DNA of 64,000 nucleotides, from sequence record ON528726; one strand, written 5' to 3'. The DNA is from Shigella phage ESh16. The position numbers and the translations under genes were made by a program. Shown here in pieces: positions 895 through 56,932 of this stretch. Within the stretch, counting starts at the first letter, position 1. Each line of letters begins with the position of its first letter. The notes beneath the pieces were generated by a model. The model was not told the origin of the DNA. It saw only the letters and a list, made by a program, of their open reading frames with translations, and searched no databases.

Positions 895-1428
895 ATGAAA
901 CGATTAGTACTAGAAGTTAGTTCACTTTTTGGTGAATTAGCTATAGAAAAAGTAAATAATATGTATCGTTTGACGCAAGAAGATGATATGATGTATTTTA
1001 CGCCTAGTGAAATCATTCATTTAACCCAAATTGAATATCCTTATACTGATAAAATAGTAAGCATTAATGATGAGAATAAAGTTCATTTTTATTCTTCATG
1101 CCCAGGATTTAATATTGAAAGCGAGTCAATGTGTTTATCAGTTATCCATTGGGATAGTTTTATAGATAAGATTAAATATTTTTATTATTCTAATGAAAGA
1201 AAACATAGTTTAAAATGGTTTAAAAATTGCAATGCTATTATTACTAACGCTTGCAATCAAAATGATGAAACTGTTTTAAACGTATCAAAATGCTATGAAG
1301 ATGGTGATGTCTTAACTATTCGTCAAATTGATGATTTTCGATCGCATATTGTCACATTTACCAAAGACGAAGCCATTGCGCTAAAGACTTATCTTGATTC
1401 TGTCATTCCAACTATGATTTCAAAGTGA
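895..1428 (+). CDS. hypothetical protein, tandem paralogue A1 (177 aa)
   Basis: Track ORF starts GTG 874; ATG at 895 directly after upstream stop. Shares GFNIE block and C-terminal motif with the next ORF. Confidence 0.5.
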   Translation: MKRLVLEVSSLFGELAIEKVNNMYRLTQEDDMMYFTPSEIIHLTQIEYPYTDKIVSINDENKVHFYSSCPGFNIESESMCLSVIHWDSFIDKIKYFYYSNERKHSLKWFKNCNAIITNACNQNDETVLNVSKCYEDGDVLTIRQIDDFRSHIVTFTKDEAIALKTYLDSVIPTMISK

Positions 1429-1434
1429 GGAAAT

Positions 1435-1956
1435 ATGTTTATTTCAAGTGGAAGTGGTTTAATTCGTGTTGAATTTAAAAATGACATCTTCCTTATTCAA
1501 GGAGATGATATTATTAAAATGAGTTATGACGAAATCAAGAAAATTTGTCATATTCTTGAAAGTCGTGGAAAAGGAAATGCTACTATCGATATAGGTGATT
1601 TATGGGTGACACTTTATGAAGTATCCGAAGGATTTAACATTGAAGATGAAAACAACATCTTAGCTATTGATAAAAGAAGCGATTTGTTTGATGTGTTAAA
1701 AGTTTATGAACAGTCAAACGGTGGAAGAAAAGCTGCATTGATTTATCAAAAACCACATTCATGCGGAACTGCTTCAATTATTTCAGATATTGAAGATGAA
1801 ACTGATACTTATATGTGTGTTTTAAAAGCTGGTGGTGACCGTCATCCGGATTTTATTTCTATTCGTCAAAACAATGGAGAAATTTCATTATCAAAATCAG
1901 AAGCTGAAGCTATGATTAAGTATTTAACAACTGTTACACCTTCAATGAAAGGATAA
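1435..1956 (+). CDS. hypothetical protein, tandem paralogue A2 (173 aa)
   Basis: C-terminus SKSEAEAMIKYLTTVTPSMKG parallels TKDEAIALKTYLDSVIPTMISK of the previous ORF. Confidence 0.5.
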   Translation: MFISSGSGLIRVEFKNDIFLIQGDDIIKMSYDEIKKICHILESRGKGNATIDIGDLWVTLYEVSEGFNIEDENNILAIDKRSDLFDVLKVYEQSNGGRKAALIYQKPHSCGTASIISDIEDETDTYMCVLKAGGDRHPDFISIRQNNGEISLSKSEAEAMIKYLTTVTPSMKG

Positions 1957-1958
1957 TT

Positions 1959-2420
1959 ATGATTATTAATGAAAACTCTTGGCACTATAAATTATTCAAA
2001 CTGTTTAATGATGAATGGAAACGACCTAAGACACTGTGTGCATACTTTTGGTCTATTGTTATCCCTACATTTTTCGTTTCTTTTTTCGGATGTACTATAC
2101 TCGCAGGTCTAACTATTATCTGTGCAGAAATCATGCAGAAATGGCTTATTTTTGGTAGTTTATGGACTCTTATTCCATCAGCATTTATACTTGCCATTTT
2201 GCTTGTTTTACTTATTATTGGTTCATTTGTTATTCCTGCACAACTGCATGAAAAATATAAAGATTATAAATGGAAAAAGGATTATGCTTTACATGTAGAA
2301 AATATTGATAGGGCGTATAAAGGTTTACCTCCTATTCAACCCAAGAAATCTATTATCGTCGAATTTTTAAAAGCGCGTAAAGCTAAAGTATGTCCTGTTA
2401 TTGAATATAAGGCTGAATGA
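1959..2420 (+). CDS. predicted membrane protein (153 aa)
   Basis: Several long hydrophobic stretches (FWSIVIPTFFVSFFGCTILAGLTIICA; LIPSAFILAILLVLLIIGSFVIP); stop overlaps next start. Confidence 0.45.
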   Translation: MIINENSWHYKLFKLFNDEWKRPKTLCAYFWSIVIPTFFVSFFGCTILAGLTIICAEIMQKWLIFGSLWTLIPSAFILAILLVLLIIGSFVIPAQLHEKYKDYKWKKDYALHVENIDRAYKGLPPIQPKKSIIVEFLKARKAKVCPVIEYKAE

Positions 2421-3545: not shown

Positions 3546-4514
3546 ATGAAAACTGTAACTATCAATAAGGGTATCTACTTCGGTAAAGAAATCTCTGGAA
3601 CTTTTGAGCTTTTAGGCGAATGGTTCCCAGATAATGCTCCGGTAGATGCACAAGGAGATGGTAAAGTTTTTGTTGAAATTGACGGTAAGCGTCGCGGTGT
3701 TTGGGTTTACAAATCAGATATTTCATATGATGGTGTAAAAGTTGAAGAAGTTAAAGAATCATATGAAGATATGAAAACCCGCATTAATAAAAGATTTAAT
3801 GTTATGGGAATGATGACGAATGGTATTATTAATGGAAATATTCGTTCATTGATTATCTCTGGCGCAGCAGGTATTGGTAAAACGTATTCTTTAGATAAAG
3901 CTTTAAATAAAGCAAATGATATTGGATACATTGAATATAAAAGCATTAATGGTAAAATCTCTGGTATTGGTCTTTATGAGCAGCTTTGGAATAATCGTGA
4001 AGAGAATTCTGTACTTTTGATTGATGATGTAGATGTTTTCTCTGATATGGACATTCTTAATCTTCTAAAAGCCGCTCTGGACACTGGAGAGACCCGTAAA
4101 GTCTGCTGGAGCACTGCGTCTTCTTACTTAGAAGAAAAAGGCATTGAGCGTGAGTTTGAATTTAAAGGAACGATTGTTTTTATCACAAACGTTGACATTG
4201 ACCGCGAATTAGACCGTGGTACTAAACTTGCTCCACATTTACAAGCATTAGTGTCCCGCTCAGTTTATTTAGATTTGGGTGTTCACACTAATGAAGAAAT
4301 TATGGTCAGGGTTGAAGATGTTATTCTTTCAACTGACATGATGCAAAAGCGCGGTCTTTCTGATGAAGAAACTTATAAAGCATTATCATGGATGAAAGTT
4401 AATGTTAATCGTTTACGCAATGTTTCACTGCGTACTGCTCTTTATCTTGCTGACTTTATTATGACCGACAAAAACGGTTGGGAAGAAATTGCTGAGGTTA
4501 CTCTTCTGAAATAA
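3546..4514 (+). CDS. P-loop (AAA-like) ATPase (323 aa)
   Basis: Walker A GAAGIGKT and Walker B LLIDDVD; true ATG at 3546 after promoter cassette (track ORF from 3378 reads through the promoter). Confidence 0.6.
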   Translation: MKTVTINKGIYFGKEISGTFELLGEWFPDNAPVDAQGDGKVFVEIDGKRRGVWVYKSDISYDGVKVEEVKESYEDMKTRINKRFNVMGMMTNGIINGNIRSLIISGAAGIGKTYSLDKALNKANDIGYIEYKSINGKISGIGLYEQLWNNREENSVLLIDDVDVFSDMDILNLLKAALDTGETRKVCWSTASSYLEEKGIEREFEFKGTIVFITNVDIDRELDRGTKLAPHLQALVSRSVYLDLGVHTNEEIMVRVEDVILSTDMMQKRGLSDEETYKALSWMKVNVNRLRNVSLRTALYLADFIMTDKNGWEEIAEVTLLK

Positions 4515-4612
4515 TTCATAAGAGGACTTCTATGACAAAAAGGCAGTTCAGAAATAGATTATATGGATTGCCATTAAAAAGATGACTAGAATTAAACTGG
4601 TGAATGGAGGTA

Positions 4613-17543: not shown

Positions 17544-18101
17544 ATGTCAGAAACTAAGCCTAAATATAATTACGTAAACAATAAAGAGCTTTTACAAGCT
17601 ATTATTGATTGGAAAACAGAATTAGCAAATAATAAAGACCCAAATAAAGTAGTTCGTCAGAATGATACTATCGGATTAGCCATTATGCTTATTGCAGAAG
17701 GCTTATCTAAACGTTTCAACTTTTCAGGATACACCCAATCCTGGAAACAAGAAATGATTGCAGATGGTATAGAAGCTTCTATTAAGGGGCTTCATAATTT
17801 TGATGAAACGAAATATAAAAACCCACATGCATATATAACTCAAGCTTGTTTTAATGCATTCGTCCAACGTATTAAAAAAGAACGTAAGGAAGTTGCAAAG
17901 AAATACAGTTACTTCGTTCACAATGTCTATGACAGTCGTGACGACGATATGGTTGCGTTAGTAGATGAAACTTTTATTCAAGACATCTACGATAAAATGA
18001 CGCATTACGAAGAATCAACCTATAGAACACCGGGGGCTGAAAAGAAAAGTGTTGTAGACGATTCTCCTAGTTTGGATTTTTTATATGAGGCTAACGATTA
18101 A
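17544..18101 (+). CDS. 55: late sigma factor gp55 (185 aa)
   Basis: [23 protein letters not shown] as recalled for T4 gp55; track ORF begins 2 codons upstream at GTG. Confidence 0.92.
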
Positions 18102-24417: not shown

Positions 24418-24807
24418 ATGACTAAAATTACTGTGAATTATACTGTTGATGTAAAAGATATTCAGCCAAAACACGTGCGTTCTGATTCAAATCCACAAAA
24501 CCAAAATAAAATTCGTCGAGCATGGGTTTTGTCTCTTTCTGATAACGCAATGGAAGTTATTCAGAATAAAATTAAATCTGCACCTGCTCGTCATGCGTAT
24601 TATGAAGCTATCGATCGTGAAGTAAGTAATAAATGGATTGAACTAATGCGCAAACATACGACAGAATCTTTAAATGCTGGTGCTAAATTTATTATGACTT
24701 CATGTGGTGAACGCCTTGAAGATGATTATTGCGGTAATGCAGATGAACGTCTAATTGTTGCTGCTCAAATTGTTGCGGAAACAATTGCTTCTGATTTTAA
24801 TCGTTAA
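24418..24807 (+). CDS. rpbA: RNA polymerase-binding protein RpbA (129 aa)
   Basis: Length and position between 46 and 45 as recalled for T4 rpbA. Confidence 0.7.
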
Positions 24808-24862
24808 TTGCTTTATTAAATTAGTTATAAAATTAAATCTCATTTGAATTGAAGGAAATTAC

Positions 24863-36415: not shown

Positions 36416-36709
36416 ATGAAAAAATTTATCTTTGCTACAATTTTTGCTTTATCTTCTTGTGCTGCTCAGCCTGCTATGGCGGGTTATGACAAAGATTTGT
36501 GTGAATGGTCTATGACTGCAGATCAGACTGAAGTTGAAACTCAAATTGAAGCAGATATTATGAATATCGTTGAGCGTGATCGTCCTGAAATGAAAGCTGA
36601 AGTGCAAAAACAACTTAAGTCTGGTGGTGTAATGCAGTATAATTATGTTCTGTATTGCGATAAAAACTTTAATAATAAAAATATCATCGCTGAAGTGGTA
36701 GGTGAATAA
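36416..36709 (+). CDS. sp: Spackle (Sp) periplasmic superinfection-exclusion protein (97 aa)
   Basis: Signal peptide MKKFIFATIFALSSCAAQPAMA; 97 aa; position between dmd and 61. Confidence 0.65.
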   Translation: MKKFIFATIFALSSCAAQPAMAGYDKDLCEWSMTADQTEVETQIEADIMNIVERDRPEMKAEVQKQLKSGGVMQYNYVLYCDKNFNNKNIIAEVVGE

Positions 36710-37335
36710 TGCTCTATCAAATGCACAAGTGCAAAGATACATACAAATATAAAGGTGCCAAGTGTTATATCATTAATCGTGAAAACGCGGGTCCAGGTCA
36801 TTCACATCAATCACGGTTTGTATTCGTTAAAAACAATGAAATTATAGCAGTTGCTAATTACATGCTTGTGACTAATGATGTTAATCCGGTGCCTTTTACA
36901 TATTATAATCTAATGGATTTGGCGTACGATTATAATTGGTTTAATCGTAATACTTTGGCTCATATTGAAGGTGTAGGATTTGACATCTCTTATTCTAGTT
37001 ACTCGTTGTGTCCTATGAGCCGAGCTCATAAAGAGCCTGAATATTTTTCATTTCGTCGGCGTGTAGACTTTAAACGCAGCACAGAGTATATCGGTGGAAT
37101 CTTTGTTAAAGATAATCGAATTACTCGCATTATTTATCCTTTGGGCTGTGGTCAAAAAGATATTGATGTTGATTTAGACTTTACTGAAAACATCATTAAT
37201 CATATTGCTTCTGTGTATTTTGATATTGATCACAAAATTGTAATATGTGGATATGAATTACCATCAGAAAAACAGTCTAAAGTAAATGTTTCTATTGATG
37301 ACCAAATTTTTAATGCTTTTATGAATAGAGGTTAA
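36709..37335 (+). CDS. hypothetical protein (208 aa), T4 61.2 position
   Basis: Size and synteny match T4 61.2; sequence not independently recognised. Confidence 0.45.
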   Translation: MLYQMHKCKDTYKYKGAKCYIINRENAGPGHSHQSRFVFVKNNEIIAVANYMLVTNDVNPVPFTYYNLMDLAYDYNWFNRNTLAHIEGVGFDISYSSYSLCPMSRAHKEPEYFSFRRRVDFKRSTEYIGGIFVKDNRITRIIYPLGCGQKDIDVDLDFTENIINHIASVYFDIDHKIVICGYELPSEKQSKVNVSIDDQIFNAFMNRG

Positions 37336-37336
37336 T

Positions 37337-37501
37337 ATGAAAACATATAAAGAATTTATCAAAGAAGATATGGTAGCTGGAGATTCAGGTGGTAATCCTG
37401 AAAATATCTCCACTGGAACAACGTCAGGCGCTGTAGTAAATAAAGGTCCTGAACAGATTCCTAAAAAGAAAAAAGAGGAATCTAAAGAAAAAGAAGAGTA
37501 A
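37337..37501 (+). CDS. small hypothetical protein (54 aa)
   Basis: ATG 37337 after previous stop; Lys/Glu-rich tail; below track threshold. Confidence 0.3.
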   Translation: MKTYKEFIKEDMVAGDSGGNPENISTGTTSGAVVNKGPEQIPKKKKEESKEKEE

Positions 37502-37503
37502 AA

Positions 37504-38532
37504 ATGTCATCAATACCTTGGATTGATAATGAGTTTGCATACCGTGCATTAGCTCATTTACCTAAATTCGCACAAGTAAATAATAGTTCAACTTTTAAAT
37601 TACGGTTTAGATGTCCTGTTTGTGGAGATTCAAAAACCGATCAAAATAAAGCCCGTGGATGGTATTATGGCGATAATAATGAAGGAAATATTCATTGTTA
37701 TAACTGTAACTATCATGCACCAATCGGAATATATTTAAAGGAGTTTGAACCTGATTTATATCGTGAGTATATCTTTGAAATAAGAAAAGAAAAAGGTAAA
37801 AGTCGTCCAGTAGAAAAACCTAAAGAACTTTCTAAACAACCTGAGAAGAAAATAATTAAATCTCTTCCGTCATGCATTAGACTAGATAAACTGGCGGAAG
37901 ACCATCCAATTATAAAATATGTAAAAGCTCGTTGTATTCCAAAGGATAAATGGAAATATCTTTGGTTTACAACCGAATGGCCTAAATTAGTTAATAGTAT
38001 AGCGCCAGGAACATATAAAAAGGAAATGCCCGAGCCTCGTCTTGTTATTCCAATTTATAATGCTAACGGAAAAGCCGAGTCTTTTCAAGGACGTGCATTA
38101 AAGAAAGATGCTCCTCAAAAATATATCACCATCAAAGCTTATCCTGAGGCAACAAAAATCTATGGAGTTGAACGAGTCAAAGATGGTGATGTATATGTTC
38201 TAGAAGGACCTATAGATTCACTTTTTATTGAAAATGGTATAGCTATTACGGGTGGTCAATTAGACCTAGAAATTGTTCCATTTAAAGATAGACGTGTGTG
38301 GGTTTTAGATAATGAACCTCGTCACCCTGACACTATTAAACGAATGACTAAATTAGTTGATGCAGGAGAAAGGGTTATGTTTTGGGATAAATCTCCCTGG
38401 AAATCAAAAGATGTTAATGATATGATTAGAAAGGAAGGTGCAACCCCTGAACAAATTATGGAATATATGAAAAATAATATTGCCCAAGGGTTGATGGCTA
38501 AAATGCGGCTATCTAAATATGCTAAGATTTAA
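37504..38532 (+). CDS. 61: DNA primase gp61 (342 aa)
   Basis: Zinc ribbon CPVCGDS...CYNCNYH and TOPRIM-type acidic motifs; length as recalled for T4 gp61. Confidence 0.93.
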   Translation: MSSIPWIDNEFAYRALAHLPKFAQVNNSSTFKLRFRCPVCGDSKTDQNKARGWYYGDNNEGNIHCYNCNYHAPIGIYLKEFEPDLYREYIFEIRKEKGKSRPVEKPKELSKQPEKKIIKSLPSCIRLDKLAEDHPIIKYVKARCIPKDKWKYLWFTTEWPKLVNSIAPGTYKKEMPEPRLVIPIYNANGKAESFQGRALKKDAPQKYITIKAYPEATKIYGVERVKDGDVYVLEGPIDSLFIENGIAITGGQLDLEIVPFKDRRVWVLDNEPRHPDTIKRMTKLVDAGERVMFWDKSPWKSKDVNDMIRKEGATPEQIMEYMKNNIAQGLMAKMRLSKYAKI

Positions 38533-38729
38533 ATTAACCCAACCAAAGCAAATGCTAAATCTACGAATGTATCAAGAGTAATTACTGGAATATTAACACC
38601 ATGAGCAATAGCAATTGGTGATAAAACAAAATTCCAGAGTAAAATTCCTACCATAGCAGAAATAGTAAAAGCTATACGTTTTTTATTACCTTTTATGGCA
38701 TTAACAAGTGCCATTAATTTTTGTACCAT
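38529..38729 (-). CDS. small hydrophobic membrane protein on opposite strand (66 aa)
   Basis: ATG (complement 38727-38729) 5 nt after a perfect AAGGAGG SD (complement of 38734-38740); two hydrophobic helices; stop overlaps gene 61 stop. Confidence 0.4.
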   Translation of the reverse strand: MVQKLMALVNAIKGNKKRIAFTISAMVGILLWNFVLSPIAIAHGVNIPVITLDTFVDLAFALVGLI

Positions 38730-38741
38730 ATGTCCTCCTTA

Positions 38742-38766
38742 TTGCTTTATATATTTATTGTATAAT
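38742..38766 (+). promoter_or_regulatory. candidate MotA-dependent middle promoter for gene 56
   Basis: TTGCTTTA MotA-box-like at 38742-38749, 11 nt spacer, TATAAT at 38761-38766. Confidence 0.45.
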
Positions 38767-38800
38767 TAATCTACTAACCCATGAATTGAAAGGAAAAATA

Positions 38801-39319
38801 ATGGCTTACTTTAATGAATGTAGTCAACTGATTGAAGGCGCTGATAAAGCTCAAAATGAATACTGGGATATTCTCGGTGATGAAAAAGATCCGTTGCAAG
38901 TTATGCTTGATATGCAGAAATCTCTGCAGGTTCGTTTAGCTAAAGATAAACCTGAATATAACCGTCATCCTGATGATTTGGCTACTGCAGGTGAAGTTGT
39001 TGATTGGCTGCGTAATCAGAAAGATTATATTGATGATGAATTCCGCGAACTTCTGACTTCTCTTGGTGGTATGAGCAATGGCGAAAAAGATGCATCTGCT
39101 GTATGGAAGCCTTGGAAGTCGCAACACGGTGAACGTCGTGAAACTCTGATTACTGACTTATCTCCACAAGACCAGTTGGAAATTAAATTCGAAATGATTG
39201 ATATTCTTCATTTCGTTCTGAACATGTTCCAAGGTCTCGGTCTTACGGCTGAAGAAATCTTTAAACTTTATTATCTGAAAAATGCTGAAAACTTCGCTCG
39301 TCAAGACCGAGGTTATTGA
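38801..39319 (+). CDS. 56: dCTPase/dUTPase gp56 (172 aa)
   Basis: ATG 38801 after SD GGAAAAATA; MazG-like NTP-pyrophosphatase sequence as recalled for T4 gp56 (track ORF extends upstream). Confidence 0.8.
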   Translation: MAYFNECSQLIEGADKAQNEYWDILGDEKDPLQVMLDMQKSLQVRLAKDKPEYNRHPDDLATAGEVVDWLRNQKDYIDDEFRELLTSLGGMSNGEKDASAVWKPWKSQHGERRETLITDLSPQDQLEIKFEMIDILHFVLNMFQGLGLTAEEIFKLYYLKNAENFARQDRGY

Positions 39320-39322
39320 TGA

Positions 39323-39330
39323 TATAAATA
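39323..39330 (+). promoter_or_regulatory. late promoter TATAAATA upstream of soc
   Basis: Exact TATAAATA about 30 nt before soc ATG. Confidence 0.6.
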
Positions 39331-39361
39331 CACCTGTAATTAAACAATAAAGGAGTTTATT

Positions 39362-39598
39362 ATGGGTGGTTTCGTTAACATCAAGACCTTTACTCATCCA
39401 GCAGGTGAAGGCAAAGAAGTTAAAGGTATGGAAGTTTCTGTTCCGTTTGAAATTTATTCTAACGAGCATCGTATCGCAGATTCTCATTATCAGATCTTTC
39501 CTTCTGAAAAGGCAGCATATTCTACCGTAGTTTCTGATGCAGCTGATTGGAAAACTAAGAATGCTGCAATGTTTACCCCTACAGAAATAGGTGGTTAA
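39362..39598 (+). CDS. soc: small outer capsid protein Soc (78 aa)
   Basis: VNIKTF...HYQIFPSEKAAYSTV matches T4 Soc as recalled. Confidence 0.85.
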   Translation: MGGFVNIKTFTHPAGEGKEVKGMEVSVPFEIYSNEHRIADSHYQIFPSEKAAYSTVVSDAADWKTKNAAMFTPTEIGG

Positions 39599-55775: not shown

Positions 55776-56105
55776 ATGATTTATTGTATGAATATCGGTG
55801 ATTCCGACATAAAAGAGATTAAACTGCACGGAAATCATCATGCTAATATTGTGTACTGCAATAAATTTGAGTTTGGTCACGAAAAACTTGGGTTTCTTTA
55901 CTGCAATGATATTATAGTCATGGATAAAAAGGAACTCGATGAACTTGACCGTGAGTCTTTAGATGAAAATGACCGAATTTATTACGGCACTCTTAAAGTA
56001 TATAACGCTTATCTCAGCGGTAAAAAGGAAAGTCTAAATGCAGAAAACGAATCCGGGTTTACAGAGACTATTTCAGATTCCGACATTTACCCTATCGAAC
56101 AGTGA
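55776..56105 (+). CDS. hypothetical protein (109 aa)
   Basis: ORF; overlaps denB start by 68 nt. Confidence 0.3.
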   Translation: MIYCMNIGDSDIKEIKLHGNHHANIVYCNKFEFGHEKLGFLYCNDIIVMDKKELDELDRESLDENDRIYYGTLKVYNAYLSGKKESLNAENESGFTETISDSDIYPIEQ

Positions 56106-56596: not shown

Positions 56597-56668
56597 AATT
56601 TTCACAAAATGGTTTACATACCACAAGGAATGTGGTACTATATAACTATCAGCTACGGAGGAGCAAAA
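56597..56668 (+). promoter_or_regulatory. early promoter plus leader (PeSL-like cassette copy)
   Basis: TTTTCACAAAATGGTTTACATACCACAAGGAATGTGGTACTATATAACTATCAGCTACGGAGGAGC. Confidence 0.55.
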
Positions 56669-56932
56669 ATGAAATTTAAATTTTATTACGCTAAACATAA
56701 AATAACTGATGAGTTTGTGTCAGTTGAATATTCTAGCGATGATGAAGGTATGATTTATACTCGCTTGGGTCTATCGCATTGGGAGTCTGATACGCCTTAT
56801 TTTTCCACTCCCGAAGAAATTACACGCTTAGTTAATGGTCATATGAATGACCACTGGAATGTAATTCTTTCAGATAGTCTTAAAGCGGCTATTAATAGTA
56901 ATGAAATGAAAATCGCTGAGATTGAACTATGA
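56669..56932 (+). CDS. hypothetical protein (87 aa)
   Basis: ATG 56669 directly after cassette leader. Confidence 0.35.
   Translation: MKFKFYYAKHKITDEFVSVEYSSDDEGMIYTRLGLSHWESDTPYFSTPEEITRLVNGHMNDHWNVILSDSLKAAINSNEMKIAEIEL

Follow-up and report, generated by a model that had tools for sequence, protein, structure and literature searches.

The 66-codon reading frame on the minus strand between gene 61 and gene 56 (38529..38729, with an ATG start and a TAA stop) is, judging from sequence comparisons, a genuine and vertically conserved gene of T-even phages. It is a member of phrog_2024, the RB32ORF030w / RB69ORF029w family, and hence an already catalogued hypothetical gene. It is not a substitute for dam, which behaves as part of an optional cassette. 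We consider it likely that this gene encodes a small inner-membrane protein and that it is expressed late. The assignment draws on the match to phrog_2024, coding constraint, hydropathy and the helices of an AF2 model.

Position and distribution of the antisense gene

The window, that is, the whole 64,000-nt stretch of DNA analysed, is from a Tequatrovirus. The nearest complete genome is that of ESh34, to which the window is related as a mosaic of blocks with 94-100% identity, and no record is identical to it; around the locus itself, the window and ESh34 agree at 100% identity over 2 kb (37400-39400). Gene 61, encoding the DNA primase, is on the plus strand at 37504..38532 and its product shares 97.7% amino acid identity with T4 gp61. 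Gene 56, encoding the dCTPase/dUTPase, follows on the plus strand at 38801..39319 and was recognised from the list of open reading frames and from the 73% amino acid identity of its product to T4 gp56. The antisense ORF and gene 61 are convergent, and the tail-to-tail overlap of their stop codons proposed in the original prediction is present: four nucleotides (TTAA) are shared and gene 61 ends at 38532. The predicted Shine-Dalgarno sequence AAGGAGG is also in place on the minus strand (38734..38740), but the spacer before the ATG is 4 nt long (ACAT) rather than the 5 nt given originally. A GGAGG-like Shine-Dalgarno sequence is kept upstream of the ORF in all lineages compared. The central proposal, that a small antisense gene for a putative membrane protein with a strong Shine-Dalgarno sequence lies between genes 61 and 56, was thus borne out, and the gene is conserved.

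Against the phrog_2024 HMM, the ORF protein scored E = 5.4e-31, with residues 2-66 aligned to profile positions 1-65 of 65. The protein of the window is identical to those of records labelled RB32ORF030w or 'hypothetical protein', and nothing of substance distinguishes it from the family, which is classed as 'unknown function'. By tblastn, the ORF was found at an identity of at least 80% in 502 phage records of the Tequatrovirus type, nearly always at full length and adjoining the primase gene, and at least 80% of the frame is retained in 686 of the 692 matching records. More divergent copies occupy the same place in other phages. The RB69ORF029w-type genes of Mosigvirus, which lie between the primase and gp56 genes and are 51% identical to the window ORF, share its position, its strand and its overlap with the primase stop codon. 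Copies of the Gaprivervirus/Dhakavirus type between the same two genes are about 49% identical, and identity drops to about 37% in the syntenic copies of PEi20/Kosakonia-type phages and to about 31% in those of the Klebsiella JD18 type. All of these divergent syntenic copies match phrog_2024, with E values from 4e-13 to 7e-27, and all are on the opposite strand with the primase gene (61) on one side and the dCTPase gene (56) on the other. Furthermore, a tandem paralog is present in one of the loci compared (L015), and Gaprivervirus-type loci carry a second paralog between the ORF and the primase gene.

Other searches were less informative. Neither the ORF nor two divergent homologues matched any Pfam or NCBIfam model, a profile search against 1.8 billion representative proteins returned only close relatives within this small family of phage proteins and one spurious long protein, and Foldseek comparison of the AF2 model with BFVD returned family members and noise. 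Literature searches covering RB32ORF030w/RB69ORF029w, Ribo-seq and start-site mapping in T4, and proteogenomics turned up no mention of the ORF and no evidence for it from transcripts, ribosome profiling or peptides, and the texts on HIDEN-SEQ and CRISPRi-ART contained nothing usable on the locus.

The predicted membrane protein and its possible functions

The genes of phrog_2024 are predicted to encode an inner-membrane protein of 61-66 amino acids. In the AF2 model of the window protein, which is of moderate confidence (mean pLDDT 73, pTM 0.41) and was built on a shallow alignment, helices span residues 2-13, 16-42 and 52-63. The product had been described as a two-helix hydrophobic protein. 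One full transmembrane helix (about residues 16-42) agrees with this description, but the second is only a short hydrophobic helix at the C-terminus (52-63), and there is in addition an amphipathic helix at the N-terminus. The charge is +5 on the N-terminal side of the transmembrane helix and -2 on the C-terminal side, and the hydropathy fits a single span with the N-terminus inside. The product is therefore predicted to be an N-in bitopic inner-membrane protein, with its topology assigned by the positive-inside rule alone. In such an arrangement, the short amphipathic helix and the basic cluster KGNKKR that follows it would be on the cytoplasmic side, the single transmembrane helix would carry an invariant Trp-Asn in mid-membrane and then a Pro, and an invariant G-x3-P turn would lead to the short C-terminal helix, acidic and hydrophobic, on the periplasmic side. 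Since the Asn would be buried in the membrane, it suggests helix-helix association, either between copies of the protein or with another membrane protein as partner.

As a guess, we favour a role at the inner membrane late in infection, for example in the timing of envelope or lysis events, in exclusion, or in assembly associated with the membrane. More specifically, and only tentatively, the ORF may encode an overlooked late inner-membrane microprotein whose Trp-Asn…Pro segment binds to a membrane protein of the host or of the phage, with a late role at the envelope in lysis timing or inhibition, superinfection exclusion, or evasion of a membrane-based defence. Small inner-membrane proteins of T4 such as Imm, Ac and RI resemble the ORF product in size, helical anchoring, T-even origin and non-enzymatic character. 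Unlike for these proteins, late and not early expression is suggested by the orientation and promoter type of the ORF. A search of the ESh34 genome for a paralog of the ORF yielded none below E = 0.4, so that no relationship in sequence to such proteins was detected.

Phage holins (classes I-III and pinholins) are, like the ORF product, small, membrane-spanning and probably late, and UniRef/BFVD gives the name 'Holin' to the family member of phage vB_EcoM_OE5505. We nevertheless regard a holin, pinholin or antiholin-like lysis protein as unlikely. The product is predicted to have at least one transmembrane domain, as a holin should, but it lacks a charged hydrophilic C-terminal tail: its C-terminus is hydrophobic (…FALVGLI) and its basic residues are N-terminal. 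The gene is also outside any lysis cassette, its neighbours being the primase and dCTPase genes with no endolysin or spanin gene. The 'Holin' label was rejected on these C-terminal and gene-context criteria. The phrog_2024 HMM is classed as 'unknown function', and every other source names the protein 'hypothetical protein'; the Klebsiella-type copy does match a holin PHROG, but very weakly and at chance level (E = 0.34). Moreover, the holin (T), antiholins (RI and RIII) and spanins of T4 are well characterised and are encoded elsewhere in its genome.

Putative promoters and coding constraint

T4-type late promoters are defined by TATAAATA at positions -13 to -6 and do not need a -35 element. 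On the minus strand upstream of the ORF, the late-promoter-like element AATAAATA (38752..38759) matches this sequence at seven of the eight positions, the exception being an A at -13. A at -13 is common among the late promoters of T4 (PMC2988020, PMC1524935), being present at 9 of 50 sites (PMC2988020). The predicted start from AATAAATA is near 38746, which gives a leader of about 17 nt. ATAAATA is scarce in the window (seven copies, with about 40 expected), and one of these copies lies 22 nt upstream of the ATG of the ORF. In every lineage, NATAAATA is found 12-22 nt upstream of the ATG, while the flanking intergenic DNA has diverged. Position -13 is occupied by A, G or C across lineages and never by the T of TATAAATA; the G or C seen in other lineages is a rarer deviation from TATAAATA than A. 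At the locus of the Klebsiella type, there are two heptamers, one just 12 nt from the ATG and one 33 nt upstream. Because a start from the nearer heptamer would clip the Shine-Dalgarno sequence, the one at 33 nt is the better candidate. Most likely the ORF has a promoter of its own in the gp55-type variant AATAAATA, from which it would be transcribed in the 'late' (clockwise) direction and then translated from the strong Shine-Dalgarno sequence on the short leader. A scan for sigma-70 promoters gave matches at the level expected from shuffled sequence, and the sole minus-strand candidate upstream of the ORF agreed at 9 of 12 positions; an early sigma-70 promoter for the ORF was therefore dropped.

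On the other strand, a MotA-type middle promoter for gene 56 had been predicted immediately beyond the ORF. This promoter (38741..38766, plus strand) consists of ATTGCTT at 38741-38747, a spacer of 13 nt, and TATAAT at 38761-38766, and it aligns with the annotated mot-box and -10 element of P(M)16.53 of T4, in keeping with the prediction. At the level of sequence, TATTGCTTTA fits the pattern of MotA promoters, namely (a/t)(a/t)TGCTT(t/c)A centred near -30 and a sigma-70 -10 element about 11-14 nt downstream. It is homologous to P(M)16.53, the oriA primer promoter, in the alignment of the T4 segment from the end of dam to the start of 56 (X01416). The late-promoter-like element of the ORF is within the spacer of this gene 56 promoter, so that a late promoter and a MotA-dependent promoter would be placed back to back.

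A late minus-strand transcript converging on gene 61 might itself be the functional product: it would overlap the early read-through from 61 to 56 and, late in infection, shut down primase or early messages as an antisense RNA, with the ORF being incidental. Downstream of the ORF, no terminator-like site was found on the minus strand, which would allow read-through into gene 61, and late T4 transcripts of either polarity are on record, several sites being transcribed on both strands at different times (PMC2988020). Against this, such read-through is not conserved, since a stable GC hairpin lies between the ORF and the primase gene in Klebsiella-type phages and the second paralog occupies this place in Gaprivervirus-type loci. 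The minus-strand fold is no more stable than that of shuffled sequence (z = -0.29), and an Rfam scan of the minus-strand transcript found no RNA family. The strong Shine-Dalgarno sequence is conserved and the tandem paralog keeps the invariant residues. The ORF shows clear purifying selection at the protein level and codon periodicity. Within lineages its dN/dS is 0.09-0.39; in comparisons between lineages, where dS reaches saturation, it is about 0.2-0.3. The variable sites of the ORF fall at codon positions 1, 2 and 3 in the ratio 25/4/36 (chi-square p = 5e-6). Seven residues (M1, W32, N33, P38, G44, P48, and G64) are invariant, the tandem paralog of L015 included. Altogether, an antisense RNA as the main product seems improbable, and a protein-coding gene is the reading that we retain.

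The length of the ORF is not unusual by itself in AT-rich DNA, and the window contains other antisense ORFs that are as long or longer (such as 36449-36742 and 39158-39487, both minus strand); what sets this ORF beyond chance is its conservation. A chance origin, as an open frame in AT-rich spacer DNA that gene finders call for its Shine-Dalgarno-like sequence, is very hard to believe, as the sequence evidence argues strongly against it: length, strand, position and the seven invariant residues are kept across several genera down to about 30% identity, dN/dS is far under 1, and codon position 2 is nearly invariant (4 of the 65 variable sites).

The T4 copy and the dam cassette

According to the original prediction, the ORF takes the place that dam and gene 69 have in T4. 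The T4 genome, however, contains this ORF as well, between gene 61 and dam, at 17738-17938 on the plus strand of NC_000866 (4239-4439 of locus L002), with 62 of the 66 residues identical (94%). This copy is located in a 309-bp unannotated gap from gene 61 to dam and carries no annotation in either AF158101 or NC_000866. It shares with the window ORF the frame of 66 codons, the stop overlap with gene 61 at TTAA and, upstream, AAAGGAGG and GATAAATA. What separates the ORF from gene 56 in T4 is dam together with a 28-codon frameshifted remnant of a 186-aa gene, whereas in the window the upstream region of the ORF directly abuts the gene 56 promoter. Since T4 carries both the ORF and dam, the two coexist and the ORF is ruled out as a replacement for dam. 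Gene 69 does not belong to this interval either. In X01416 (1984), 'gene 69' runs from the start of the present gene 56 to the end of segF, and 69* is segF; a separate gene 69 between 61 and 56 is ruled out, because it equals 56 plus segF.

The absence of dam from the 61/56 junction was correctly predicted: no T4-type Dam was found in the window or in ESh34, where the best tblastn matches to T4 Dam stayed above E = 6 and E = 1, respectively. For the roughly 100 kb of the genome outside the window, this result is that of ESh34 as the nearest relative. The notion that dam had been lost was not supported. In Tequatrovirus most junctions lack dam, and in the other genera no other arrangement was seen; T4-type Dam at an identity of at least 90% was found in 182 records only, compared with the 502 that have the ORF. 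The arrangement 61 / ORF / 56 without dam is the ancestral and commonest one. Because the junction without dam is the commonest, dam is best described as an optional cassette, and this phage has not undergone an unusual loss. In a minority of phages, the cassette consists of a gene for a 186-aa nuclease-like protein with a restriction-endonuclease fold of the PD-(D/E)xK type together with dam; T4 retains dam and the remnant of the nuclease gene, and the same anatomy recurs in divergent contigs. Alignments with the two T4 flanks and with locus L014 put the insertion point at 38741..38760 (no strand), which is empty in the window. In the phages that carry it, the cassette lies between the promoter of the ORF and that of gene 56.

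The T4 reference records AF158101 and NC_000866 therefore omit a gene that is under purifying selection and conserved in at least five T-even lineages. Genome-wide studies built on the T4 annotation have probably skipped it, and adding it to the annotation would be a cheap fix; since the CRISPRi-ART screen was aimed only at annotated coding sequences, the ORF was probably never tested there. With 66 codons it is a tractable target, and a deletion or amber mutant could easily be made. The absence of dam at this junction is not in itself remarkable. As dam behaves as an optional cassette, phage-directed methylation of GATC should be missing from many natural T-even phages.

A conserved opposite-strand gene between genes 61 and 56

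The window comes from a Tequatrovirus. Across positions 37400-39400 it shares 100% identity with Shigella phage ESh34 and 97-99% with hundreds of T4-like phages. As the original prediction described, the gap between the primase gene 61 (37504-38532, + strand) and the dCTPase/dUTPase gene 56 (38801-39319, + strand, start at 38801) holds a 66-aa ORF on the opposite strand (38529-38729, - strand), and the stops of the small ORF and gene 61 share 4 nt (TTAA). The perfect AAGGAGG Shine-Dalgarno sequence (38734-38740, - strand) is also present, at 4 nt ahead of the ATG and not the 5 nt first counted. Between the small ORF and gene 56, ATTGCTT (38741-38747) is followed after 13 nt by TATAAT (38761-38766). 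This is the MotA-box/-10 promoter predicted for gene 56, and it aligns with P(M)16.53, the mot-box/-10 promoter of oriA in T4, where oriA is marked at the 5' end of gene 56.

In AT-rich DNA the length of an ORF is by itself little proof of a gene, and longer antisense ORFs lie nearby, so conservation has to decide. The small ORF matched 692 phage records (tblastn, E ≤0.01), 686 of them over at least 80% of the frame and 502 with at least 80% identity. Divergent copies were found in Mosigvirus PhAPEC2 (51% identity; its annotation notes similarity to RB69ORF029w), in the Gaprivervirus/Dhakavirus-type phages VR26, JS98, and Bp7 (about 49%), in PEi20/Kosakonia-305-type phages (about 37%), and in Klebsiella JD18-type phages (about 31%). 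They are all syntenic, on the opposite strand with the primase on one side and gp56 on the other. The window protein matched the PHROG family phrog_2024 ('unknown function') with E = 5e-31, and the divergent copies matched it with E = 4e-13 to 7e-27. In eleven within-lineage pairs dN/dS was 0.09-0.39 (Nei-Gojobori), and it was about 0.2-0.3 in comparisons across lineages, for which synonymous sites have reached saturation. Variable sites within lineages numbered 25/4/36 at codon positions 1, 2, and 3 (chi-square p = 5e-6). Furthermore, VR26-type Gaprivervirus loci carry a second, tandem 66-aa paralog (2701-2901, + strand, in locus L015; likewise in L016 and L019), which takes up the space separating the first copy from the primase and keeps the W-N…P…G…P…G pattern and the 4-nt stop overlap. 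M1, W32, N33, P38, G44, P48, and G64 are invariant, also in this tandem copy. The minus-strand RNA was no more stable than shuffled sequence (z = -0.29), and an Rfam search with it matched no family. Judged by these sequence comparisons, the small ORF encodes a protein and is under purifying selection. It is an unexceptional member of a T-even gene family that has been catalogued before but is functionally uncharacterised.

Downstream, soc (39362-39598, + strand) directly follows gene 56, with a perfect TATAAATA ahead of it (39323-39330, + strand). The interval between gene 56 and soc has neither segF, which T4 has, nor the soc.1/soc.2-type ORF of other relatives. The gp56 of the window is only 73% identical to that of T4, compared with 97.7% for the adjoining gp61 (37504-38532), and Tequatrovirus loci that are otherwise almost the same carry one of two gp56 allele classes (about 71% vs about 99% identity to the window). 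Such differences would fit gene 56 as the target of SegF homing and marker exclusion.

The T4 counterpart and the optional dam cassette

In T4 (NC_000866), gene 61 is followed by a gap of 309 bp without annotation and then by dam, 56, segF, and soc. The gap holds the same 66-codon ORF (record positions 17738-17938, + strand), with 62 of 66 residues identical to the window, the same overlap with the gene 61 stop, and AAAGGAGG as its Shine-Dalgarno sequence. T4 thus has the small ORF beside dam, and the ORF is no replacement for dam. The reading as a novel antisense gene in the place of dam was rejected, since the family is catalogued and T4 carries both genes. The original prediction also placed gene 69, together with dam, between 61 and 56 of T4. 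For dam this is correct, but in the 1984 sequence X01416 'gene 69' starts where gene 56 starts today and ends with segF, and therefore lies from gene 56 onward; the length of 69* is exactly that of segF.

T4-type Dam (at least 90% identity) was found in 182 records, vs 502 with the Tequatrovirus-type small ORF. When the junction was compared across T-even lineages, all Mosigvirus, VR/JS98-type, PEi20-type, and Klebsiella-type loci had the ORF followed by 56 with no Dam between, so the dam-less state is not peculiar to this phage. Thus, dam is an optional cassette that is absent from the 61/56 junction of the window; its absence there was correctly predicted, a special loss was not. T4 Dam as the tblastn query matched neither the window nor the complete genome of ESh34, the closest relative, which stood in for the remainder of the phage genome. 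The window had no exact match among the records and is a mosaic relative to ESh34, with blocks of 100%, 99.8%, 99.1%, 93.9%, and 97.8% identity and breaks near 4495-4531, 24787-24853, 55781-56024, and 56651-56904, so that beyond the window we can only infer the absence of Dam from ESh34. GATC is rare in the dam-less window (75 observed vs about 200 expected from base composition) and also in the dam-carrying T4 segment (9 vs 27 expected from shuffles); therefore GATC avoidance does not track dam.

In dam-carrying Tequatroviruses, dam is usually accompanied by an upstream 186-aa gene (phrog_8706) that abuts its start, the TAA stop of this gene and the dam ATG overlapping by one base. In the cassette locus L014 the 186-aa gene is at 1841-2401 (- strand) and dam at 1062-1841 (- strand). 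The 186-aa protein was covered by at least 80% in 155 records. T4 retains only its last 28 codons, frameshifted (about 4127-4215 in the T4 locus L002); the remainder was removed by a deletion of about 550 bp between two ATCACAAA copies of the intact cassette. The same pair occurs at the same place in divergent T-even contigs (cassettes at L024 3501-4843 and L025 1480-2829), which have a 186-aa protein of 55-63% identity. phrog_8706 has an invariant FDIVI…(I/V/L)EIKHQ motif that resembles the PD-(D/E)xK signature, and the protein gave a sub-threshold match to the Pfam DpnII (GATC) restriction endonuclease (E = 0.0045). PDB matches of its AlphaFold2 model (pLDDT 78, pTM 0.79) had low TM-scores of 0.3-0.46 and were mostly PD-(D/E)xK nucleases, namely the R2 restriction-like endonuclease domain, AF1548, Bax1, Can2/Card1, McrC, Mus81/Hef, and Hjc. 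The 186-aa gene and dam therefore look like a restriction-modification-like module, and T4 dam may be the methylase half of such a module whose nuclease gene was lost by the laboratory T4 strain.

A predicted late promoter

The T4 late-promoter core ATAAATA occurs 7 times on both strands of the window (12212, 37131, 38752, 39324, 49659, 60964, 63728), vs about 40 expected from shuffles, an about six-fold depletion; the full TATAAATA occurs 2 times vs 10.5 expected. The depletion is as expected if stray late promoters are selected against in an early-gene region. One of the seven (38752-38758, - strand) lies 22 nt 5' of the small-ORF ATG; its sequence including position -13 is AATAAATA. Every other lineage has NATAAATA 12-22 nt 5' of the ATG on the ORF strand, in a diverged spacer, while their 5-kb loci contain only 1-3 such heptamers on that strand. 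T4 late promoters have A at -13 in 9 of 50 sites, and active variant promoters are known (PMC2988020, review); -13 is poorly conserved in T4 relatives (PMC1524935, comparative study). From the conserved heptamer, the depletion, and the A(-13) variants we infer that the small ORF is transcribed late from a gp55-type promoter. The gp55-dependent transcript would start near 38746, and its leader of about 17 nt would bear the Shine-Dalgarno sequence. In the window, the late-promoter-like element falls within the spacer of the MotA-type gene 56 promoter, so that the promoters would overlap back-to-back.

No terminator-like site was found 3' of the small ORF on the minus strand of this region, so that transcription could in part continue into gene 61 as antisense. 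In Tequatrovirus and Mosigvirus the stop codons of the small ORF and the primase overlap, whereas Klebsiella-type loci have a GC hairpin between the two convergent genes; in Klebsiella phage RCIP0102 (L004 2663-2680) it is a perfect, GC-rich stem closed by a UUCG loop (AAGGGGCTTCGGCCCCTT). Given this hairpin and the second paralog at the same place in VR26-type phages, read-through into the primase is not a conserved feature. On the plus strand, a weak hairpin with a T-run after it (38695-38714) resembles a terminator and lies about 165 nt past the gene 61 stop, within the antisense ORF. It could end part of the gene 61 transcripts, although sites of this kind are about as numerous here as expected from shuffles.

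The predicted membrane protein and its place in T4

In the hydropathy profile of the small-ORF protein, the N-terminal segment is basic (K4, K13, K16, K17, R18), a hydrophobic core extends from about residue 19 to 42-50, and the C-terminal end is short and hydrophobic with D53 and D57. AlphaFold2, run on a five-sequence alignment, placed helices at 2-13, 16-42, and 52-63 (mean pLDDT 73, pTM 0.41). By the positive-inside rule, the N-terminus is predicted to be cytoplasmic and the C-terminal third periplasmic or interfacial. Three features mark the family: an invariant Trp-Asn midway along the membrane helix, a Pro five residues on, and a G-x3-P turn. A buried Asn commonly drives association of transmembrane helices, suggesting that the protein might self-associate or bind a partner. 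Pfam, NCBIfam, and BFVD gave no functional homolog, nor did a profile search across 1.8 billion proteins. UniProt labels one family member 'Holin'; this reading was rejected, as the protein has no charged C-terminal tail and the gene no lysis-cassette context.

The small ORF is annotated in neither NC_000866.4 nor AF158101.6, and the exact T4 protein had no NCBI protein accession in a large protein collection. It is annotated elsewhere, as RB32ORF030w and in the T4 mutant genome OL964735, and all names in its protein cluster are 'hypothetical' or 'uncharacterized'. The guides of the CRISPRi-ART screen were designed against annotated CDSs only, and the small ORF was probably not tested there. 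The T4 reference annotation thus omits a conserved, probably late, membrane microprotein.
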